Source of the DNA: a phage
Reading direction: 5' to 3' (one strand)
Sequence record: PZ344858.1
DNA length: 38,561 nt
Shown here: positions 3,077-38,232 of the stretch, one piece after another
Layout: the number at the start of each line of letters is the position of its first letter
Position numbering within the stretch: the first letter of the stretch is position 1
Position numbers and translations under genes: made by a program
The notes under the pieces: generated by a model
Database searches by the model: none
Told to the model about the DNA's origin: nothing
Seen by the model: only the letters and a program-made list of their open reading frames with translations

Positions 3077-3221
3077 TCTCACAGTGTACGGACCTAAAGT
3101 TCCCCCATAGGGGTACCTAAAGCCCAGCCAATCACCTAAAGTCAACCTTCGGTTGACCTTGAGGGTTCCCTAGGGGTTGGGATGACCCTTGGGGTTTACC
3201 TTTGAGTGTCTCCTTGTCCCT
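3077..3221. repeat. Terminal repeat (direct terminal redundancy), present once in this circular permutation
   Basis: Begins tctcacagtgtacggacctaaag, the T7 left-end sequence as recalled; bounded by right-end unique sequence upstream and left-end unique sequence downstream; boundaries approximate. Confidence 0.5.
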
Positions 3222-4457: not shown

Positions 4458-4612
4458 TGGCTAACAACACCACGCAATATGGTCTGACCGCTCAAACTGT
4501 ACTGTTTTATAGTGACATGGTGCGCTGTGGCTTTGATTGGTCGCTCGCAATGGAACACCTTAAGGAACTGTACGAAAACAACAAGGCAATAGCCTTGGAG
4601 TCTGCTGAGTGA
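4457..4612 (+). CDS. 0.4: gp0.4-like small protein (FtsZ inhibitor in T7)
   Basis: 51 aa [54 protein letters not shown]; ATG overlaps the ocr stop; RBS gaggagg. Confidence 0.75.
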   Translation: MANNTTQYGLTAQTVLFYSDMVRCGFDWSLAMEHLKELYENNKAIALESAE

Positions 4613-4613
4613 T

Positions 4614-4658
4614 AGGCTCAAGGTCGCTCAATATGAGTGGCCTTTATGATTATCACTT
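4614..4658 (+). promoter_or_regulatory. RNase III-type processing hairpin (R0.5-like, copy 1)
   Basis: ctcaaggtcgctcaatatgagtggcctttatgattatcactt. Confidence 0.55.
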
Positions 4659-4680
4659 AACACGCTATAGGACTAACATC

Positions 4681-4881
4681 ATGAGTAAACTTCTGGCAAC
4701 CTCCAAAATCAAAGGCCAACACACTGTAACTCTGCGTGAGTACGAGCACGGGAAAATGGGTAGCACCTACGTTGTGCGGTACGGTAAACAAGTCACGCAT
4801 TGGGTGAACGAGGTTCTGGCACAGGAGGAATATCAAGCCTGTGTGATACACCAAGCAACCTGCGCTGGCTGGAATGACTGA
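4681..4881 (+). CDS. Hypothetical early protein (66 aa)
   Basis: ORF MSKLLATSKIKGQHTVTLREYEHGK...CAGWND with RBS agga; flanked by two near-identical RNase III-like hairpins; function unknown. Confidence 0.5.
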   Translation: MSKLLATSKIKGQHTVTLREYEHGKMGSTYVVRYGKQVTHWVNEVLAQEEYQACVIHQATCAGWND

Positions 4882-4903
4882 CAACAGCCTTCAAGTCTAC
4901 CCA

Positions 4904-4954
4904 GTGATAAACTCAAGGTCGCTCCTAGCGAGTGGCCTTTATGATTATCACTTT
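4904..4954 (+). promoter_or_regulatory. RNase III-type processing hairpin (R0.5-like, copy 2)
   Basis: gtgataaactcaaggtcgctcctagcgagtggcctttatgattatcacttt; differs from copy 1 mainly in the loop. Confidence 0.55.
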
Positions 4955-11284: not shown

Positions 11285-11866
11285 TGGGACTGTTAGATGG
11301 TGTAGCTTTGGAAAAAGAAAACCCGCCAGTACAAGCAACTGGGTGTATAGCTTGCTTAGAGAAAGACGACCGTTATCCACACACCTGTAATAAAGGAGCT
11401 AACGATATGACAGAACGTGAACAAGAGATGATCATTAAGTTGATAGACAATAACGAAGGTCGCCCAGATGATTTGAATGGCTGCGGACTTCTCTGCTCTA
11501 ATGTCCCTTGTCACCTCTGCCCCGCAAATAACGATCAAAAGATAACCTTAGGTGAAATCCGAGCGATGGACCCACGTAAGTCTAAGCAGGAGAAACCAGA
11601 GGTAACTCCTACAGATGACCAACCTTCCACCGAGTCAATAGAAGGTGTCACGAAGCCATCTCATTATATGTTGTTCGACGACATTGAGGCTATCGAAGTG
11701 ATTGCCCGTTCGATGACCCGTGAGCAGTTCAAAGGGTATTGCTTAGGGAACATCCTTAAGTACCGCCTACGTGCTGGTAAGAAGTCCGAACTGGCTTACT
11801 TAGAGAAGGACATGGCGAAAGCTGGGTTCTATGGTGAACTGTACGAGAAACATAAGGACAAGTGCT

Positions 11867-11877
<11 letters not shown>
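11284..11877 (+). CDS. 1.7: Nucleotide kinase (T7 gp1.7 homolog)
   Basis: 197 aa ORF; position and size match T7 gp1.7. Confidence 0.85.
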
Positions 11878-12182
<305 letters not shown>

Positions 12183-12185
<3 letters not shown>

Positions 12186-12205
12186 TACGACTCACTATAG
12201 GGAAG
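12183..12205 (+). promoter_or_regulatory. T7-type promoter (phi2.5)
   Basis: taatacgactcactatagggaag. Confidence 0.85.
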
Positions 12206-12249
12206 ACTCCCTTTGAGAAACTAAACGAAACCTAAAGGAGATTAACATT

Positions 12250-12948
12250 ATGGCTAAGAAGATTTTCACCTCTGCTCTGGGTACTGCTGAACCTTACGCT
12301 TACCTCTCTAAGCCGGACTACGGCAACGAAGAGCGTGGCTTTGGGAACCCTCGTGGTGTATACAAAGTTGACCTGACTATTCCCAACAAAGACCCGCGTT
12401 GTCAACGTATGGTCGATGAAATCGTGAAGTGCCACGAAGAGGCTTATGCTGCTGCCGTTGAGGAATACGAAGCGAACCCGCCTGCTGTAGCCCGTGGTAA
12501 GAAACCACTGAAACCGTATGAAGGCGACATGCCGTTCTTCGATAATGGTGATGGTACGACTACCTTTAAGTTCAAATGCTACGCGTCCTTCCAAGACAAG
12601 AAGACCAAAGAGACCAAGCACATCAATCTGGTTGTGGTTGACTCCAAAGGTAAGAAGATGGAAGACGTTCCGATTATCGGCGGTGGCTCTAAGCTGAAAG
12701 TCAAATACTCTCTGGTTCCGTACAAGTGGAACACCGCTGTAGGTGCGAGCGTTAAGCTGCAATTGGAATCCGTTATGTTGGTCGAACTGGCTACCTTTGG
12801 TGGCGGTGAAGACGATTGGGCTGACGAAGTTGAAGAGAACGGCTATGTTGCCTCTGGTTCTGCCAAAGCGAGCAAACCACGCGACGAAGAAAGCTGGGAT
12901 GAAGACGACGAAGGCTCTTACGAAGAAGACTCAGACGGAGATTTTTAA
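12250..12948 (+). CDS. 2.5: Single-stranded DNA-binding protein (T7 gp2.5 homolog)
   Basis: 232 aa with acidic C-terminal tail ending DGDF; RBS aaaggag. Confidence 0.95.
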   Translation: MAKKIFTSALGTAEPYAYLSKPDYGNEERGFGNPRGVYKVDLTIPNKDPRCQRMVDEIVKCHEEAYAAAVEEYEANPPAVARGKKPLKPYEGDMPFFDNGDGTTTFKFKCYASFQDKKTKETKHINLVVVDSKGKKMEDVPIIGGGSKLKVKYSLVPYKWNTAVGASVKLQLESVMLVELATFGGGEDDWADEVEENGYVASGSAKASKPRDEESWDEDDEGSYEEDSDGDF

Positions 12949-13445
12949 TGCCACGCCTTAGCCGTGAGGCATTGCAGAAGAAAATTCTAGACAATGTGAT
13001 TCCCGATGAGAATGGATGCTGGATATGGCAGAAGTCATTCGGGAGTCACGGTTATGGAAACATTGCTACAGGAGGGCACCGGAATGAGACGGCACATAGG
13101 GTCTCACACGAGGTGTTCATTGGCGAGATTCCAAAAGGCCAGCTAGTCTTACACTCCTGTGATAATCGCAAGTGTTGTAATCCTGATCACTTGCGTAGCG
13201 GCACATATAAGGATAACAGCTCAGACGCTATCAGTAGAGGGAGGAACAAACTACCTCCGGTAATGATTGGAAGTGACCATGTTAATGCTAAACTGACAGA
13301 AGAAGAGGTACTTGAAATTTATATGTCAACCTTGTCGCAGCGTAAACTTGCAGCACTGTTTGGAGTCTCTCAGAAGTTAATTCATTGCATAAAGAGAGGT
13401 AAGGCATGGCAGCATGTTACGCAGCACGAGGAATTAAACGTGTAG
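12948..13445 (+). CDS. HNH-family homing endonuclease
   Basis: 165 aa; motif GCWIWQKSFGSHGYG...HRVSHEVFIGEIPKGQLVLHSCDNRKCCNPDHL typical of HNH_3 nucleases; ATG overlaps the gene 2.5 stop and the 3' end overlaps gene 3. Confidence 0.85.
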   Translation: MPRLSREALQKKILDNVIPDENGCWIWQKSFGSHGYGNIATGGHRNETAHRVSHEVFIGEIPKGQLVLHSCDNRKCCNPDHLRSGTYKDNSSDAISRGRNKLPPVMIGSDHVNAKLTEEEVLEIYMSTLSQRKLAALFGVSQKLIHCIKRGKAWQHVTQHEELNV

Positions 13446-13858
13446 GAAACTACCGAAGTGGACTTGAAGAGAAAAATATGGCACGCTTGGAGAGTATGGG
13501 AGTTAAGGCTAAATATGAATCCTTCTCAATCCCTTATGTAATACCAGCTAGTAATCATAAATATACACCTGACGCGTTGCTACCAAACGGTATCATAGTA
13601 GAGTTCAAGGGATTGTTCGAAGCAGAAGACCGTAAGAAACATTTACTTATTCGCGAACAGTTCCCAGACCTCGATATACGCATCGTGTTCTCTTCAAGTC
13701 GCACCAAGTTATACAAAGGGTCTCCCACCAGCTACGGTGAGTGGGCAGAAAAACACAGCATTAAGTTCGCAGATAAGTTGATACCTGCGGAATGGCTTAA
13801 AGAACCTAGTAAGGAGATTCCTTGGGACAAAATGATTATTAAGAAGGAGAAGAAATAA
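13406..13858 (+). CDS. 3: Endonuclease I, Holliday-junction resolvase (T7 gp3 homolog)
   Basis: 150 aa; conserved VPYVIPASNH...PDALLPNGI...RIVFSSSRTKLYKGSPTSYGEW matches T7 endonuclease I. Confidence 0.9.
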   Translation: MAACYAARGIKRVGNYRSGLEEKNMARLESMGVKAKYESFSIPYVIPASNHKYTPDALLPNGIIVEFKGLFEAEDRKKHLLIREQFPDLDIRIVFSSSRTKLYKGSPTSYGEWAEKHSIKFADKLIPAEWLKEPSKEIPWDKMIIKKEKK

Positions 13859-14313
13859 TGGCTCGTGTACAGTTTAAACCGCGTGAATCTACTGACGCAA
13901 TCTTTATTCACTGCTCAGCGACTAAACCAAACCAGAACGTAGGTGTCCGCGAGATTCGCCAGTGGCACAAAGAGCAAGGCTGGTTGGATGTGGGATACCA
14001 CTACATCATTAAGCGCGATGGTACTGTAGAGGAAGGCCGAGACGAGATGGCTGTAGGTTCTCACGTTAAGGGCCACAACCACAACTCAATCGGTGTCTGC
14101 CTTGTTGGTGGTATTGACGATAAAGGTAAGTTCGAAGCTAACTTTACGCCAGCCCAGATGCAATCCCTCCGCTCACTGCTTGTCACACTACTGGCTAAGT
14201 ATAAAGGCGCTGTTCTTCGAGCGCATCACGATGTCGCACCTAAGGCTTGCCCTTCGTTCGACCTTAAGCGTTGGTGGGAGAAGAACGAACTTGTCACATC
14301 TGACCGTGGCTAA
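13858..14313 (+). CDS. 3.5: Lysozyme / N-acetylmuramoyl-L-alanine amidase and RNAP inhibitor (T7 gp3.5 homolog)
   Basis: 151 aa, same length as T7 lysozyme; strong similarity. Confidence 0.95.
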   Translation: MARVQFKPRESTDAIFIHCSATKPNQNVGVREIRQWHKEQGWLDVGYHYIIKRDGTVEEGRDEMAVGSHVKGHNHNSIGVCLVGGIDDKGKFEANFTPAQMQSLRSLLVTLLAKYKGAVLRAHHDVAPKACPSFDLKRWWEKNELVTSDRG

Positions 14314-14333
14314 TTGATTGTTCGCATCATTGA

Positions 14334-16107
<1,774 letters not shown>

Positions 16108-17135: not shown

Positions 17136-19292
17136 ATGATCGTTTCTGACATCGAAGCTAACGCCCTCTTAGAGAGCGTCACTAAGTTCCACTGCGGGGT
17201 TATCTACGACTACTCCACCGATGAGTACGTAAGCTACCGACCGAGTGACTTCGGTGCGTATCTGGATGCGCTGGAAGCCGAGGTTGCACGAGGCGGTCTT
17301 ATTGTGTTCCACAACGGTCACAAGTATGACGTTCCCGCATTGACCAAACTGGCAAAGCTACAATTGAACCGTGAGTTCCACCTACCCCGTGAGAACTGTA
17401 TTGACACACTTGTGTTGTCACGCTTGATTCACTCCAACCTGAAAGACACCGATATGGGTCTTCTGCGTTCCGGTAAGTTGCCTGGTAAACGCTTTGGGTC
17501 TCACGCTCTGGAGGCGTGGGGCTATCGCTTAGGTGAAATGAAAGGTGAATACAAGGATGACTTTAAGCATATGCTTGAAGAGCAAGGTGAAGAATACGTT
17601 GATGGCATGGAGTGGTGGAACTTCAACGAAGAGATGATGGCCTATAACGTTCAGGACGTTGTGGTCACTAAGGCTCTCCTTGAGAAGCTACTCTCTGACA
17701 AACATTACTTCCCTCCTGAGATTGACTTTACGGACGTAGGATACACTACGTTCTGGTCAGAATCCCTTGAGGCCGTTGACGTTGAACATCGCGCTGCATG
17801 GCTACTCGCTAAGCAAGAGCGCAATGGATTCCCGTTTGACACGAAAGCAATCGAAGAGTTGTACGTAGAGTTAGCTGCTCGTCGCTCTGAGTTGCTCCGC
17901 AAATTGACCGAAACGTTCGGCTCGTGGTATCAGCCTAAAGGTGGCACCGAAATGTTCTGCCACCCGAGGACTGGTAAGCCATTGCCTAAATATCCTCGCA
18001 TTAAGACACCTAAAGTTGGTGGCATCTTTAAGAAGCCTAAGAACAAGGCACAGAGAGAAGGCCGTGAGCCTTGCGAACTGGATACCCGCGAGTACGTTGC
18101 TGGTGCTCCTTATACGCCAGTTGAGCACGTAGTGTTTAACCCTTCGTCTCGTGACCACATCCAGAAGAAACTTCAAGAGGCTGGATGGGTCCCGACTAAG
18201 TACACCGATAAAGGTGCACCTGTGGTGGATGATGAGGTACTCGAAGGAGTAAAAGTAGATGACCCTGAGAAGCAAGCCGCTATCGACCTTATTAAAGAAT
18301 ACTTGATGATTCAGAAGAGAATCGGACAATCTGCTGAGGGAGACAAGGCATGGCTTCGTTACGTTGCTGAGGATGGTAAAATTCATGGTTCTGTTAACCC
18401 CAATGGTGCTGTTACTGGGCGCGCTACTCACGCTTTCCCTAACCTCGCACAGGTACCCGGTGTCCGCTCTCCTTATGGTGATCGGTGCCGCTCTGCTTTT
18501 GGCGCTGAACATCACCTAGATGGACTTACAGGTAAGCCTTGGGTTCAGGCTGGTATAGACGCCTCAGGTCTGGAGTTGCGCTGCTTGGCCCACTTCATGG
18601 CTCGATTTGACAACGGTGAGTATGCTCACGAGATTCTCAATGGCGATATTCACTGGAAGAACGCAATTGCTGCCGACTTAGCACCAAACGTTGCCCGTGA
18701 TAAACACAATAAGGAACACGACCTAATGCGTGATAACGCCAAGACGTTTATCTATGGGTTCCTCTATGGTGCTGGTGATGAGAAGACTGGTCAGATTGTA
18801 GGTGCTGGTAAAGAACGCGGTAAGGAACTCAAGAAGAAATTCCTTGAGAACACCCCAGCGATTGCCGCACTCCGAGAGTCTATCCAACAGGCTCTTGTTG
18901 AGTCCTCTCAGTGGGTAGCGGGTGAACAACAAGTCAAGTGGAAACGCCGCTGGATTAAAGGTCTGGATGGTCGTAAGGTACACGTTCGTAGTCCTCACGC
19001 TGCCTTGAATACCCTACTGCAATCTGCTGGTGCTCTCATCTGCAAACTGTGGATTATCAAGACCGAAGAGATGCTCGTAGAGAAAGGCTTGAAGCACGGC
19101 TGGGATGGGGACTTTGCGTACATGGCATGGGTACATGACGAAATCCAAGTAGGTTGCCGTACCGAAGAGATTGCTCAGGTGGTCATTGAGACCGCACAAG
19201 AAGCAATGCGCTGGGTTGGAGACCACTGGAACTTCCGGTGTCTTCTGGATACCGAAGGTAAGATTGGTCCTAATTGGGCGATTTGCCATTAA
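17136..19292 (+). CDS. 5: DNA polymerase with 3'-5' exonuclease (T7 gp5 homolog)
   Basis: 718 aa; family A polymerase motifs ([26 protein letters not shown]); near-identical to T7 gp5 except for a short insertion. Confidence 0.97.
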
Positions 19293-19305
19293 AGGAGGTA
19301 TACAA

Positions 19306-19662
19306 GTGGATTCGAAACACGTCACTGGTGCTGCGTCGGAACTACTTGTTGCCTACAAGTTTACCAAGGCTGGGTACACTGTGTATTACCCTATGCTTAC
19401 TCAAAGTAAAGAGGACTTAGTTGTATGTAAGGATGGTAAATTTAGTAAGGTGCAGGTTAAGACTGCGACAGCGTTAACTGTTGGCGGAAGTACGGCACAT
19501 CAAGTCAGACTAGGCGGTTGTGGTAGAGCGTCCTACAAGGATGGCGACTTTGACCTACTGGCTGCTGTGGTGGAAGATGAAGTCCTCCTGTACACATGGG
19601 AGGAAGTTAAAGGCAAGACCTCTATGTGCGTAGGTAAGCGCAACAAAGGCGTTAAACTATAG
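19306..19662 (+). CDS. 5.3: gp5.3-like protein
   Basis: 118 aa from a GTG start 7 nt after RBS aaaggagg; size matches T7 gp5.3 as recalled; the ORF-track version 19171-19662 overlaps the gene 5 3' end. Confidence 0.65.
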   Translation: MDSKHVTGAASELLVAYKFTKAGYTVYYPMLTQSKEDLVVCKDGKFSKVQVKTATALTVGGSTAHQVRLGGCGRASYKDGDFDLLAAVVEDEVLLYTWEEVKGKTSMCVGKRNKGVKL

Positions 19663-19673
19663 GAGAAATTATT

Positions 19674-19970
19674 ATGGCTATCACTAAGAAATTTAAAGTG
19701 TCCTTTGATGTTACCCTTAAGCTGGACAGCGAGACCGAGGAACTGATGCGAGAAAAGATTCTGGACTTAGCTCATCGTGCTGGCGCTGGTGAGGAGATTG
19801 CTCCTATGGACCGAGAGTTACTAGTCCAAGCTCTGACCCGTGGTCCAGACGGTGCTGCTGCATTTGCTGTACGACAAGGCATCCGTAATGCTGTCAAGGA
19901 GATGTTCGAAGAGTCTGGTGATAAATCACTGTTCAAACAATCTCCTGCAACTGTACGGGAGGTGTTCTGA
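19674..19970 (+). CDS. 5.5: gp5.5-like protein (binds host H-NS in T7)
   Basis: 98 aa, RBS aggag. Confidence 0.85.
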   Translation: MAITKKFKVSFDVTLKLDSETEELMREKILDLAHRAGAGEEIAPMDRELLVQALTRGPDGAAAFAVRQGIRNAVKEMFEESGDKSLFKQSPATVREVF

Positions 19971-22630: not shown

Positions 22631-22644
22631 TCAGGAGGTGACAC

Positions 22645-24261
22645 ATGGCTGAGAAGCGTACAGGTCTAGCCGAGGAAGGTGCTAAGTCGGTCTATGAACG
22701 ATTGAAGAACGACCGTGCCCCGTATGAGACTCGTGCTCAAAACTGCGCTCAGTACACCATTCCGTCCCTCTTCCCTAAGGACTCCGATAACGCATCTACA
22801 GACTACACAACTCCGTGGCAAGCTGTGGGTGCTCGCGGTCTCAATAACTTGGCCTCTAAGCTCATGCTGGCTCTCTTCCCTATGCAAACGTGGATGAAAC
22901 TGACCATCTCTGAGTTTGAGGCCAAACAGTTACTGGATGACCCCGATGGACTCGCTAAGGTTGATGAGGGCCTCTCAATGGTAGAGCGCATCATCATGAA
23001 CTACATTGAGTCTAACAGCTACCGAGTGACTCTCTTCGAGGCTCTCAAGCAGTTAGTCGTTGCTGGCAACGTCCTGCTGTACCTACCGGAACCAGAAGGG
23101 TCGAACTATAATCCCATGAAGCTGTACCGATTGTCTTCTTATGTGGTCCAACGAGACGCATTCGGCAACGTTCTGCAAATGGTGACTCGCGACCAGATAG
23201 CTTTCGGAGCACTCCCTGAGGATGTCCGTAAGGCTGTAGAAGGTCAAGGTGGTGAGAAGAAACCTGATGAGACCATTGATGTGTACACTCACGTCTATCT
23301 GGATGAAGAATCAGGGGAGTATCTCCGCTACGAAGAGGTTGAGGGTATGGAGGTCCAAGGCTCAGACGGGTCTTACCCTAAAGAGGCTTGTCCATACATC
23401 CCGATTCGAATGGTTCGACTCGACGGTGAATCCTACGGTCGTTCGTACATTGAGGAATACTTAGGTGACTTACGGTCCCTTGAGAATCTCCAAGAGGCTA
23501 TCGTCAAGATGTCCATGATTAGCTCTAAGGTTATCGGCTTAGTGAATCCTGCTGGTATCACCCAGCCACGCCGACTGACCAAAGCTCAGACTGGTGACTT
23601 CGTTACTGGTCGTCCAGAAGACATCTCATTCCTACAACTGGAGAAGCAAGCAGACTTTACTGTAGCTAAAGCCGTAAGTGACGCTATTGAGGCTCGCCTT
23701 TCGTTTGCCTTCATGTTGAACTCTGCGGTTCAGCGCACTGGTGAACGTGTGACCGCCGAAGAGATTCGGTACGTTGCGTCAGAACTTGAAGATACTTTAG
23801 GTGGTGTCTACTCTATCCTTTCTCAAGAATTACAATTGCCTCTGGTACGAGTGCTCTTGAAGCAACTACAAGCCACGCAACAGATTCCTGAGTTACCTAA
23901 GGAAGCCGTAGAGCCAACTATTAGTACAGGTCTGGAAGCAATCGGTCGTGGTCAAGACCTTGATAAGCTGGAACGCTGTGTCTCTGCATGGGCTGCTCTG
24001 GCCCCTATGCGCGATGACCCAGACATCAACCTTGCGATGATTAAGTTACGCATTGCTAACGCTATCGGTATTGACACTTCTGGCATCCTTCTTACCGAAG
24101 AGCAGAAGCAACAGAAGATGGCTCAACAGTCTGTTCAAATGGGTATGGATAATGGCGCTGCTGCGCTTGGTCAAGGTATGGCTGCACAGGCTACGGCTTC
24201 ACCTGAGGCTATGGCTGCTGCCGCTGATTCCGTTGGTTTACAGCCGGTCCAGATTGAGTGA
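22645..24261 (+). CDS. 8: Head-to-tail connector (portal) protein (T7 gp8 homolog)
   Basis: 538 aa, RBS aggaggt; follows 7.3 directly with no gene 7.7. Confidence 0.97.
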   Translation: MAEKRTGLAEEGAKSVYERLKNDRAPYETRAQNCAQYTIPSLFPKDSDNASTDYTTPWQAVGARGLNNLASKLMLALFPMQTWMKLTISEFEAKQLLDDPDGLAKVDEGLSMVERIIMNYIESNSYRVTLFEALKQLVVAGNVLLYLPEPEGSNYNPMKLYRLSSYVVQRDAFGNVLQMVTRDQIAFGALPEDVRKAVEGQGGEKKPDETIDVYTHVYLDEESGEYLRYEEVEGMEVQGSDGSYPKEACPYIPIRMVRLDGESYGRSYIEEYLGDLRSLENLQEAIVKMSMISSKVIGLVNPAGITQPRRLTKAQTGDFVTGRPEDISFLQLEKQADFTVAKAVSDAIEARLSFAFMLNSAVQRTGERVTAEEIRYVASELEDTLGGVYSILSQELQLPLVRVLLKQLQATQQIPELPKEAVEPTISTGLEAIGRGQDLDKLERCVSAWAALAPMRDDPDINLAMIKLRIANAIGIDTSGILLTEEQKQQKMAQQSVQMGMDNGAAALGQGMAAQATASPEAMAAAADSVGLQPVQIE

Positions 24262-35960: not shown

Positions 35961-37637
35961 ATGGCTAACGTAATTAAAACCGTTTTGACTTACCCGTTAG
36001 ATGGCTCCAATCGTGATTTTAATATTCCGTTTGAGTATCTGGCCCGTAAGTTCGTAGTGGTAACTCTTATTGGTGTTGACCGCAAGGTCCTTACGCTCAA
36101 TACAGATTATCGCTTTGCTACGCGCACTACTATCTCGCTGACCAAATCTTGGGGTCCTGCTGATGGCTACACGACCATCGAGTTGCGCCGAGTAACCTCC
36201 ACGACCGACCGATTGGTTGACTTTACGGACGGCTCAATCCTGCGTGCGTATGACCTTAACGTAGCGCAGATTCAGACTATGCATGTGGCAGAAGAGGCCC
36301 GTGACTTAACTGCGGATACCATTGGTGTCAACAATGATGGTCACTTGGATGCCCGTGGTCGTCGTATCGTGAACCTAGCGAACGCTGTGGATGACCGTGA
36401 TGCCGTTCCATTTGGTCAACTTAAGACCATGAACCAGAACTCATGGCAAGCGCGTAATGAAGCCTTACAGTTCCGTAATGAGGCTGAGACTTTCAGAAAC
36501 CAAGCGGAGGGCTTTAAGAACGAGTCCAGCACTAACGCTACGAATACCAATCAGTGGCGTAATGAGGCTAAGGGGTTCCGTGATGAGGCCGAACAGTTCA
36601 AGAACACTGCGGCACAACAGGCTACCGCTGCTAGTAACTCTGCGGCTGCTGCTCACCAATCCGAGGTGAACGCTGCGAACTCCGCTACTGCATCCGCTAA
36701 CTCTGCCCAGTCGGCAGAACAGCAAGCAGACCGTGCGGAGCGTGAAGCAGACAAGTTGGGTAACTGGAATGCACTTGCAGAGGCCATTGAGGAAGTAAGT
36801 CCTGACCATGTGGTCACGTGGGCGGCTACTGCTAAGTTTAACGGTGAACTTATTGCTAAACGTTCTTCAACCCTGAATGCAACTGCCGAAGCTGGCTCTA
36901 TGGGGCAGATGGTACATGAATATGACCCGACTGCCGGGCGGTACACCTCAAATACATTTTGGGCTATCAAACACCCACATCAAGATGGATGGCACGTTCC
37001 CTTTCAGGTTCAAAGTAAACCTAATGATTCTGCTACATGGGAGATGCACTTCGGGGACTTCATGCATTGCTACAATGGCTTGCAGGTCGAAGGGTTCAAC
37101 AAACCGCTAGGTGTTACTAATCAGGCTAATACTGCCGTTAAGACGGTGGCACATGGTCCGGGTGATTTAGCCCAAGGCTCATGGGTATGTAACACCAGAT
37201 GGAGTTTCTACGACGCAGGGTTAGAAATTGGATGGGTTCGTGGTGGCTCTTCGAATGGCAACGGCCTACTCAGGTGGAAACCGGAAGCATCTCAAGCGAC
37301 GTATCATGACATTTGGCTAAACCCAGGTGGCGAGGTACAATTCCCATCCACGATTAAGGCAGGTGCTGCAACATATGCCGTTGATGGAAACATTGCCGGA
37401 ACTGTATGGGGCGGTTCTGGTCATCTTTACGGGTGGCTTAGAGAAAACACAGTCAACCACATTGCGATGGGTGGAGTTAACTGGGCGCAACTGTGGAGGG
37501 CTGGCGGTGTTGATGATGGTGGCGGTAAGGTCATAACAGGTATTTTAAACACGAACGCCGATGACACGGTAGATGGCTGCCAGTGGCGTGTTATGCAATA
37601 TGTACGCAACGATGGTCAACGCTTCAATATTTACTAA
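35961..37637 (+). CDS. 17: Tail fibre protein (T7 gp17-like N-terminal half, divergent C-terminal receptor-binding half)
   Basis: 558 aa; residues 1 to about 265 near-identical to T7 gp17 as recalled; remainder unrelated to the T7 tip. Confidence 0.95.
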   Translation: MANVIKTVLTYPLDGSNRDFNIPFEYLARKFVVVTLIGVDRKVLTLNTDYRFATRTTISLTKSWGPADGYTTIELRRVTSTTDRLVDFTDGSILRAYDLNVAQIQTMHVAEEARDLTADTIGVNNDGHLDARGRRIVNLANAVDDRDAVPFGQLKTMNQNSWQARNEALQFRNEAETFRNQAEGFKNESSTNATNTNQWRNEAKGFRDEAEQFKNTAAQQATAASNSAAAAHQSEVNAANSATASANSAQSAEQQADRAEREADKLGNWNALAEAIEEVSPDHVVTWAATAKFNGELIAKRSSTLNATAEAGSMGQMVHEYDPTAGRYTSNTFWAIKHPHQDGWHVPFQVQSKPNDSATWEMHFGDFMHCYNGLQVEGFNKPLGVTNQANTAVKTVAHGPGDLAQGSWVCNTRWSFYDAGLEIGWVRGGSSNGNGLLRWKPEASQATYHDIWLNPGGEVQFPSTIKAGAATYAVDGNIAGTVWGGSGHLYGWLRENTVNHIAMGGVNWAQLWRAGGVDDGGGKVITGILNTNADDTVDGCQWRVMQYVRNDGQRFNIY

Positions 37638-37649
37638 AGGAGATACACT

Positions 37650-38177
37650 ATGAAGACTTTACGTCACTATAAGAACTTCGTAAACTATATCCCAGAACGC
37701 ACCAAAGAGAATGCAGACCTTCTGGACCACGGAGTTGGCTTCTCAAAGGACGAGAATGGGAATGACTGGTATGAACTACGTGAGACATTCCGTGAGGATA
37801 CGTGGAAACTTGTCTATGCTAAAGATGGTTCGGTTATCCAGTGTGAACAGGATGTTCAGGAGTTAGCCGTGCAGGGTTCTGCTGGGGTAGTTGAACTTGA
37901 GGAAATCCCTGCTGAATACTCTCGTTACAATATGATGCAGTGGTGGTGGGACGGTGAGAAGCTCACTTGGTATCCGAGATACTTTGAGAACCAGAAGGCT
38001 CGTCTACTCTCTATGGCCTCCAAGAAGATTGAGCAGTATGCTGACTTTATGGCGCTTGGGGAGGAGGGATTAGAGGGTCTACTAAATGCGTGGCGAATCT
38101 ATCGACTTGCTGTGTATAAAGTGGACCTAAGTGTTCTACCTTTTTACGATTGGCCTGAGAAGCCTGAGGACTTATAA
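37650..38177 (+). CDS. Tail fibre assembly protein / chaperone (lambda Tfa-like)
   Basis: 175 aa with RBS aaaggag; C-terminal NAWRIYRLAVYKVDLSVLPFYDWPEKPE resembles lambda Tfa [27 protein letters not shown]; located immediately 3' of the tail-fibre gene. Confidence 0.8.
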   Translation: MKTLRHYKNFVNYIPERTKENADLLDHGVGFSKDENGNDWYELRETFREDTWKLVYAKDGSVIQCEQDVQELAVQGSAGVVELEEIPAEYSRYNMMQWWWDGEKLTWYPRYFENQKARLLSMASKKIEQYADFMALGEEGLEGLLNAWRIYRLAVYKVDLSVLPFYDWPEKPEDL

Positions 38178-38232
38178 CAACCACACAAGGAAAGACGTGT
38201 AGTCCACGGATGGACTCAGTTATGGAGGATAC

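Follow-up and report, generated by a model that had tools for sequence, protein, structure and literature searches.

Between the genes for the single-stranded DNA-binding protein (SSB; gene 2.5) and endonuclease I (the Holliday-junction resolvase; gene 3) of the phage genome PZ344858.1 lies an open reading frame (ORF) for an HNH protein of 165 aa, and the question raised by this locus is whether the ORF represents a mobile gene and, if it does, how it could have reached its present position and what travelled with it. The window, by which we mean the whole stretch of 38,561 nucleotides that was analysed, is a circularly permuted T7-like genome (Teseptimavirus) with 88% identity to T7 over the aligned parts; the left end of T7 falls near window position 3077. 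As argued below, the ORF is an intact, free-standing HNH endonuclease gene of the gp2.8/gp7.7 family that occupies the 2.5/3 junction and probably spreads by homing. What we propose about its mobility, homing, target site and mode of cutting (nick or double-strand break) follows the example of the HNH homing endonucleases as a class; in the literature searched we found no report of site-specific cleavage or homing by any member of the gp2.8/gp7.7 family.

The ORF, its neighbours and its expression signals

The original prediction had placed the ORF between the SSB and endonuclease I genes, with its last 40 nt overlapping the start of gene 3, and this arrangement was recovered exactly (Table 1). 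The three motifs that it had quoted (GCWIW, HRVSHE and LHSCDNRKCCNPDHL) are likewise all present in the translation of the 165-aa ORF.

Table 1. Features of the 2.5/3 region, with positions numbered along the whole window.
Feature	Position	Strand	Basis
T7-type (phi2.5-like) phage RNA polymerase promoter, before gene 2.5	12183..12205	+	TAATACGACTCACTATAGGGAAG, 2 mismatches to consensus, 0 expected by chance
Gene 2.5, single-stranded DNA-binding protein (SSB)	12250..12948	+	Pfam SBB_T7, E=1.6e-89
Mosaic block of ~0.95 kb spanning the gene 2.5 tail, the HNH gene and gene 3; foreign to the HZ2R8/WW2-like backbone	~12905..13855	+	Informative sites
Shine-Dalgarno GGAG, 7 nt upstream of the HNH ATG, within the DGDF codons conserved in gene 2.5	12937..12940	+	Read from sequence
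HNH endonuclease ORF, T7 gp2.8/gp7.7 family, 165 aa, ATG start	12948..13445	+	ORF listing, Pfam, PHROG, BLASTP
Nuclease domain, residues 1-96 (N-terminal helix, beta-sheet, His-Me finger)	12948..13235	+	Model
Pfam HNH_3 portion, residues 49-91	13092..13220	+	Pfam
Flexible linker, residues ~97-117	13236..13298	+	pLDDT falls to 66-88
C-terminal three-helix helix-turn-helix, residues 118-149	13299..13394	+	AlphaFold2 model
GAGAGGTAAGG, Shine-Dalgarno-like, for gene 3, inside the 3' end of the HNH ORF	13394..13404	+	Read from sequence
Overlap of the HNH 3' end and the gene 3 start, 40 nt, different frames	13406..13445	+	ORF listing
Gene 3, endonuclease I (Holliday-junction resolvase)	13406..13858	+	Pfam Phage_endo_I, E=1.8e-74

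At the upstream edge of the ORF, the TAA of gene 2.5 (12946-12948) and the ATG of the HNH gene (12948-12950) have one base in common (TAATG). At the downstream edge, the start of gene 3 at ATG 13406 is backed by an alignment from residue 1 with gp3 of T7, pO111, Klebsiella phage Patroon and a metagenomic relative, and the Phage_endo_I profile is matched over positions 2-149 of 149, beginning at residue 3 of gene 3. In the record of Escherichia phage vB_EcoP_PHB19 (MN481365; hereafter PHB19) gene 3 is instead given a start at an ATG further inside the gene, and the call seems to be truncated. Overlaps between the HNH gene and gene 3 were also found elsewhere, spanning 20 nt in T7, 29 nt in pO111, 37 nt in Patroon and 31 nt in the metagenomic relative (L012). 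The minus-strand ORFs across the region measure at most 67 aa and were dismissed as unsupported.

The promoter that precedes gene 2.5 stands at the place where phi2.5 is annotated in T7, and no further T7-type promoter consensus was found between 12205 and the HNH gene. A promoter or terminator belonging to the HNH gene itself was rejected, as the sigma-70-like and terminator-like matches stay at chance level, and a search of Rfam over 11500-15000 gave no match at E≤1, that is, neither an RNA family nor an intron. Transcription of the HNH gene presumably starts at the phi2.5-type promoter and runs through gene 2.5, and translation of the HNH gene is presumably tied to that of gene 2.5 by the TAATG overlap and by the GGAG within the DGDF codons. 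In relatives that have no insert at the 2.5/3 site, it is gene 3, with its GTG start, that follows the same GGAG. In T7, pO111 and Patroon a purine-rich element equivalent to the one listed for gene 3 in Table 1 likewise lies within the HNH 3' end, and the overall layout, in which the insert takes the upstream translation signal and brings a new one for gene 3, is common to these three phages and the metagenomic relative. Since gene 3 receives a new ribosome-binding site and start codon (ATG) from the 3' end of the HNH gene, both neighbours are left intact.

HNH proteins of the terminase-associated type (HK97 gp74), which are terminase-adjacent and needed for packaging, were also considered and set aside: the present gene is part of the cluster for DNA metabolism, its neighbours being genes 2.5 and 3, and close relatives of the phage lack it.

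Domain structure and family of the HNH protein

The HNH_3 core proposed in the original prediction was identified by Pfam (PF13392; 39.8 bits against a gathering cut-off of 24.8, E=3.5e-10, residues 49-91), and the ORF matches 11 PHROG HNH/endonuclease families, the best of them at 2.5e-31. A NUMOD DNA-binding motif, for which a search had been suggested, was not found in the Pfam scan of the ORF at E≤0.1. The idea that the C-terminal region might bind DNA gained ground from the AlphaFold2 model, which predicts a three-helix helix-turn-helix (HTH) there. The model was built on an alignment of 39 homologous sequences that leaves out those of T7 and pO111, and its mean pLDDT is 91.7. The HTH, presumably the DNA-recognition domain, is well conserved across the family alignment. 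The linker that joins it to the nuclease domain is 13 residues longer than in Patroon-type relatives, as seen from a gap in the alignments.

Eleven residues are invariant in the family and every one of them is kept in the window protein (C24, Y36, H50, H69, C71, D72, C76, N78, H81, G85 and N90); H69, N78 and N90 are invariant in both alignments that were constructed, of 34 and 39 sequences. H69 is presumed to be the general base and N90 a metal ligand. The presence of invariant cysteines and histidines, together with a weak Pfam match to zf-His_Me_endon and a match to I-PpoI, suggests C24, C71, C76 and H81 as a candidate structural zinc site.

Comparison of the model to solved structures with Foldseek returned I-HmuI of Bacillus phage SPO1 (PDB ID: 1U3E) as the top match (probability 1.00), and I-HmuI likewise headed the results when the PDB was searched with the family sequence profile (E=5e-4), the alignment extending over nuclease domain and HTH. 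I-HmuI was recovered by the family profile only, the single-sequence PDB search with the HNH protein having given no match at E≤1. In the profile alignment the conserved histidine of the family (H69) shares a column with the histidine of the DHKDGN motif of I-HmuI. I-HmuI, with its nuclease domain and C-terminal HTH, is thus the best solved structural and profile match, and the assignment of the protein as a His-Me-finger nuclease of I-HmuI-like architecture is supported by the model and the profile alike. An intron-encoded origin of the I-HmuI type was rejected for the gene itself, which lies between two intact genes in a region free of Rfam matches.

Measured against the 80%-identical metagenomic relative (L012), the HNH gene has a dN of 0.14 and a dS of ~1.7 (dN/dS ~0.09); the protein is thus no relic but evolves under purifying selection. 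Synonymous divergence is saturated for most gene pairs, and dN/dS could be calculated only for two pairs with L012 (HNH and gp2.5) and two with Patroon (gp2.5 and gp3.5).

The original prediction had remarked that the sequence did not seem to be that of the T7 gene at this position. As far as the sequence goes this is correct, but T7 does carry a gene there, gene 2.8, whose product is a full-length homologue: BLASTP against T7 gp2.8 (NP_041971.1) gave 39% identity over residues 9-152 (E=4e-32). The remark is misleading, because what the two phages have at this site are divergent alleles belonging to one gene family. The T7 paralogue of gp2.8, gp7.7 (NP_041994.1), is 41% identical to the HNH protein (E~1e-29), and the two T7 proteins are 49% identical to each other. 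The HNH_3 profile is also matched by T7 gp2.8, T7 gp7.7, the gp2.8 of pO111 and the Patroon protein.

Both T7 proteins share the two-domain layout of the window protein, gp2.8 also its locus, and both are non-essential in T7. Unlike them (139 and 130 aa, respectively), the window protein has an N-terminal extension and a linker longer by 13 residues. The window gene opens with an ATG that overlaps the TAA of gene 2.5, whereas T7 gene 2.8 (139 aa) opens with a GTG right behind that stop codon and overlaps gene 3 by 20 nt; the gene 3 allele linked to the window HNH gene also differs from that of T7. In a recent preprint (10.1101/2025.09.07.674715), T7 genes 2.8, 3.8 and 7.7 are treated as homing endonuclease genes and their triple deletion is viable. 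The ORF is, then, of an ordinary and already annotated kind: it sits where members of its well-known family, the optional gene 2.8/7.7 family of T7-group phages, are usually found. The value of this result lies mainly in housekeeping, in that the ORF can be assigned to the gp2.8/gp7.7 family and its T7 counterpart at this position recognised.

Occupied and empty 2.5/3 junctions

In order to trace the distribution of the family, phage records were searched with tblastn, and homologues were retrieved from 1607 of them. Among the best matches listed, nearly all have their annotated position between the genes for SSB and endonuclease I in Studiervirinae, the hosts of which include Klebsiella, Escherichia, Leclercia, Pantoea, Serratia, Citrobacter and Shigella. 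At the DNA level a copy of the window allele was found in a single phage record, that of PHB19 (99.4% identity for both nucleotides and amino acids). The PHB19 protein (QHI00766.1) has the same context as in the window and is already annotated as 'HNH homing endonuclease', albeit the two genomes are overall just 92.0% identical. A metagenomic protein (P0001) is 99% identical to the HNH protein, and another (P0002) is 80% identical and has the same 2.5/HNH/3/3.5 context, in a phage with only ~71% nucleotide identity to the window.

The HNH genes of Teetrevirus and Przondovirus members (Klebsiella phage Patroon, Leclercia 10164-302, KP32 isolate 195 and ORF17 of Citrobacter phage SH1) lie at the same 2.5/3 site and have the same architecture, with 46-66% amino acid identity; they differ from the window gene in belonging to other genera, in their gene 3 alleles and in their shorter linkers. 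In the SH1 record the HNH homologue adjoins endonuclease I, and ORF17 has been described as a homing endonuclease missing in the sister phages SH2 and phiYeO3-12 (PMC4925675). The alleles of pO111, T7, Patroon and KP32-like phages at this same site are just 40-66% identical. The 2.5/3 junction is a recurrent endonuclease insertion site in Studiervirinae.

The closest genome-wide relatives of the window are WW2 (94.4%), HZ2R8 (93.7%) and CICC 80001 (91.9%). In all three, genes 2.5 and 3 abut without any intervening sequence, the GTG of gene 3 coming immediately after the TAA of gene 2.5 (TAA/GTG). A 200-nt probe for the empty junction gave a contiguous match in 64 phage records, including that of phiA1122. 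T7 matches the probe only through TAAGTGG, four bases beyond the gene 2.5 stop. The gene is thus polymorphic for presence and absence among close relatives, with a precise empty site, as expected of the optional or selfish element that had been proposed. That the ORF might be orthologous and syntenic across all T7-group phages, the outcome that would have spoken against such an element, is contradicted by the empty junction in the closest relatives and in the 64 records.

The 2.5/3 site also bears signs of loss. Vi06 has a spacer of 76 nt there, in which a frame (TLREKLRAYPRVTPFGCC) resembling the first ~18 residues of gp2.8-type proteins is followed by the ribosome-binding region of gene 3; judging from its sequence, the spacer is a probable deletion remnant of a gp2.8-type gene. 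Decay therefore occurs at this site, and one may ask whether the window ORF, too, has lost its activity and is the decaying leftover of an ancient insertion. Conversely, the wide occurrence of HNH genes at the 2.5/3 position in the subfamily might point to a core gene passed on by vertical inheritance; in neither case would the gene be mobile. We hold both to be very improbable. The ORF is of full length and keeps every invariant residue, and both its dN/dS and the confidence of its model (pLDDT 91.7) are out of keeping with a relic. A core gene would not be absent from the closest genome-wide relatives and from the 64 empty-junction records, and the amino acid identity of the HNH proteins (39-80%) does not follow that of the flanking genes, the value for T7 being 39% compared to 99% for gp2.5.

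Purifying selection and the well-conserved HTH domain would also fit a protein that is useful to the phage, and the gene might be kept mainly as a DNA-binding anti-defence factor, for instance one that masks DNA ends from the break-sensing GAPS4 system, its nuclease activity and mobility being secondary. In the preprint mentioned above, catalytically dead T7 gp3.8 and an HNH endonuclease of Bas24 attenuate GAPS4, and T7 devoid of genes 2.8, 7.7 and 3.8 loses to the wild type only when GAPS4 is present (10.1101/2025.09.07.674715). However, gp2.8 was removed there only within the triple mutant (10.1101/2025.09.07.674715), all catalytic and metal- or zinc-binding residues are invariant in the family, which argues for a selected nuclease activity, and close relatives represented by 64 records manage without the HNH gene. 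We therefore find it unlikely that anti-defence is the main role of the protein, bearing in mind that this role and that of a nuclease are not mutually exclusive.

A mosaic block that includes gene 3

Three-way informative sites (window, PHB19 and HZ2R8) were used to delimit the foreign DNA around the HNH gene. The left crossover falls within 12779-12910 and the right one within 13849-13880. The last ~14 codons of gene 2.5 (from ~12905) belong to the foreign block, with 10 consecutive informative sites of the PHB19 type at 12910-12945, and in gene 3 the PHB19 type accounts for 155 of 157 informative sites. Outside the block, sites of the PHB19 and HZ2R8 types form a fine mosaic. In the comparison with HZ2R8, WW2 and T7, homology ends exactly at 12948, picks up at low identity only from ~13528, and leaps to 98-100% at 13850, the 3/3.5 boundary. 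Genome-wide, the interval 12801-13900 is the 1.1 kb most similar to PHB19 (9 differences against a median of 84.5), and the GC content drops to 41-43% over 13200-13850, compared to 47-50% in the flanks.

The encoded proteins display the same discontinuity. While gp2.5, gp3.5 and gp4 share 95-100% amino acid identity with their counterparts in the backbone relatives (T7, WW2, HZ2R8 and CICC 80001), and gp2.5 is 99.5% identical to that of HZ2R8, gp3 is only 72-73% identical to the proteins of T7, WW2, HZ2R8 and CICC 80001, compared to 97% for pO111 and 100% for PHB19. The window gene 3 thus represents the Vi06/pO111 allele class. From these sequence patterns, gene 3 seems to have moved together with the HNH gene, as its linked cargo, and the block as a whole is best described as a lateral transfer that included the flanks, which is compatible with homing accompanied by co-conversion of gene 3.

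Under homing, the preferred reading, the events could be pictured as follows. The HNH nuclease domain, tethered by the flexible linker to an HTH predicted to confer sequence recognition, would in a mixed infection nick or cut the genome of a related phage devoid of the HNH gene, at or near the 2.5/3 junction or within gene 3. In the T7-type recombination repair that follows, the cut genome would acquire a copy of the HNH gene along with flanking DNA, in this case the tail of gene 2.5 and the whole of the linked gene 3 allele, and the outcome would be the foreign block of ~0.95 kb within an HZ2R8/WW2-like backbone. A comparison of gene 2.5 tails revealed no consistent 'immunising' substitution pattern that might mark the target site, as the gene 2.5 tail of T7 does not differ from that of the empty-site phages despite the presence of gp2.8 in T7.

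Similar arrangements are on record for other phage lineages. Among the free-standing HNH endonucleases of T4-type phages (MobE), an intergenic gene next to an essential gene, with co-conversion of its flanks, has been described (PMC2790892), and in ICP1-like phages divergent and interchangeable HNH-3 endonuclease genes at fixed loci bracket essential (cargo) genes (Barth et al., PMC10448857). The T4-type MobE/Mob class and the 'HEG islands' of ICP1 resemble the present locus in concept, having an endonuclease gene placed between genes beside an essential gene; by description, which is the level at which they were compared, they contain a zinc finger or AP2 domain instead of the HTH found in the window protein.

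Two further explanations bear on the same block. The first is that the protein acts as a nuclease of interference or marker exclusion, which cuts co-infecting T7-like genomes and lowers their yield without efficiently copying its own gene. Its architecture would be the same as for homing, interference competition mediated by the endonuclease of a phage intron has been shown (PMC11620839), and the HNH allele is rare, being represented at the DNA level in one other record of the phage collection. The near-identical HNH and gene 3 block in two genomes that are 92% identical indicates, on the other hand, copying between lineages, and we rate interference without self-copying as distinctly improbable. 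Exclusion and homing are two outcomes of one cleavage event, and the two explanations therefore differ in emphasis rather than in mechanism. The second is ordinary recombination: T7-like genomes are finely mosaic everywhere, and recombination alone, without help from an endonuclease, could produce the same block of ~1 kb.

Gene 3 itself falls into at least three deep allele classes (~72% amino acid identity) in genomes that are otherwise 90-95% identical. Such classes separate even T7 from the empty-site phages, and the divergence of gene 3 is therefore not uniquely tied to the window HNH allele; the comparison of HNH clades with gene 3 allele classes covers ~12 loci. Homing might nevertheless be taken a step further, and we raise tentatively, as a possibility that we are inclined to doubt, that the HNH gene and its gene 3 allele form a co-mobile endonuclease-cargo cassette directed against rival gene 3 alleles or the empty 2.5/3 junction, perhaps with an anti-defence function as well. 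If so, the cassette would drive the turnover of the phage Holliday-junction resolvase and would thereby explain the deep allele classes of gene 3, and the HNH protein might add a nuclease-independent anti-defence role such as that reported for T7 gp3.8.

Whichever of these holds, the locus is a clean case from nature, in which the breakpoints are defined and an endonuclease gene at a mosaic boundary travels with its essential neighbour, gene 3. The TAA/GTG junction, the three allele classes of gene 3 and the phages HZ2R8, CICC 80001, phiA1122, T7, pO111 and PHB19 together constitute a convenient system in which homing by a gp2.8-type enzyme could be tested.

A minor peculiarity of the block concerns the start of gene 3, which reads MAACY in the window and MAGY in pO111, and thus has one extra codon. 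We considered whether recombination joining an HNH cassette of the Patroon type to a gene 3 of the pO111 type had left this codon behind as a scar, and rejected the idea, as the 80%-identical metagenomic relative (L012) has MAARY at the same place; the extra codon is therefore a feature of the HNH clade to which the window gene belongs.

Endonuclease I alleles and the 2.5/3 junction

Teseptimavirus genomes that are otherwise 90–95% identical carry at least three deep allele classes of endonuclease I, as seen when gene 3 of the window is compared with the loci of T7 (L002) and L009, Vi06 (L003), L004, and WW2, HZ2R8 and CICC 80001 (L006–L008). The first class, of the T7 type, is linked to gp2.8; the second (HZ2R8/WW2/CICC type) occurs with an empty junction, at which the TAA of gene 2.5 directly abuts the GTG of gene 3; the third is the Vi06/pO111/window type. 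Between the classes, identity over the entire gene is ∼57–82% at the nucleotide level and ∼72% at the amino acid level, and after this divergent gene it jumps to 98–100% exactly where gene 3.5 begins.

Genes 2.5 and 3 of Salmonella phage Vi06 are separated by a 76-nt spacer, one frame of which reads TLREKLRAYPRVTPFGCC. Since this translation is similar to the N-terminus of gp2.8-type HNH proteins, the spacer is probably what remains of an HNH gene after a deletion. In T7, the GTG start of gene 2.8 directly follows the TAA of gene 2.5 (TAAGTGG), as does the GTG start of gene 3 in empty-site phages, and the homology between the T7 and empty-site junctions stops after those four bases past the TAA. 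From this shared start, with homology ending there, it appears that the original start codon of gene 3 was taken over by the T7 insert.

An empty 2.5|3 junction of the T7 group was also found in MT350293.1 ('Enterococcus phage EFA-2', labelled as an Enterococcus faecalis phage). The 94.9% identity of this junction to Escherichia coli phage HZ2R8 suggests a mislabelled host or contamination.

In the PHB19 record, an internal ATG is used as the start of endonuclease I (127 aa). The annotation lacks 24 N-terminal residues which are conserved with T7 gp3, and the start was therefore probably mis-called.

Coordinates of the features discussed
Feature	Sequence	Position	Strand	Remarks
Gene 3 (endonuclease I)	window	13406-13858
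2.5/3 spacer	Vi06 (L003)	2206-2281
Gene 2.5 stop/gene 2.8 start	T7 (L002)	1055-1064
Endonuclease I as annotated	PHB19 (L001)	4531-4911
HNH linker insertion	window	13245-13283		HNH residues ∼100-112
Gene 3.8 site	window	14320-14364		flanks directly joined; T7 has 418 nt
Gene 7.7 site	window	22639-22645		flanks directly joined; T7 has 397 nt
T7 gene 5.3 homologue	window	19306-19659	+	78% aa identity; Pfam PDDEXK_5, E=1.2e-10
Gene 5.3 region	window	19292-19941		unaligned with PHB19
Distal gene 17 (by position)	window	∼36400-38220		no alignment with PHB19 (36406-38221) or T7 (36790-38184)

Linker insertion in the HNH protein

Relative to Patroon-type relatives, the linker that joins the nuclease domain to the HTH domain contains an insertion of ∼13 residues, KLPPVMIGSDHVN, common to the HNH clade formed by the window, PHB19 and the metagenomic protein P0002. 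The structure model of the window protein is of low confidence at this insertion.

Other endonuclease genes and the tail-fibre region

T7's two other HNH genes, 3.8 and 7.7, have no counterparts in the window. The homologue of T7 gene 5.3 is a second optional endonuclease-like gene; in place of the region containing it, PHB19 has a shorter stretch of ∼290 nt.

Near its right end, the window has a stretch that aligns with neither PHB19 nor T7; it is, by position, the distal part of tail-fibre gene 17, where a different receptor-binding domain is presumably encoded.
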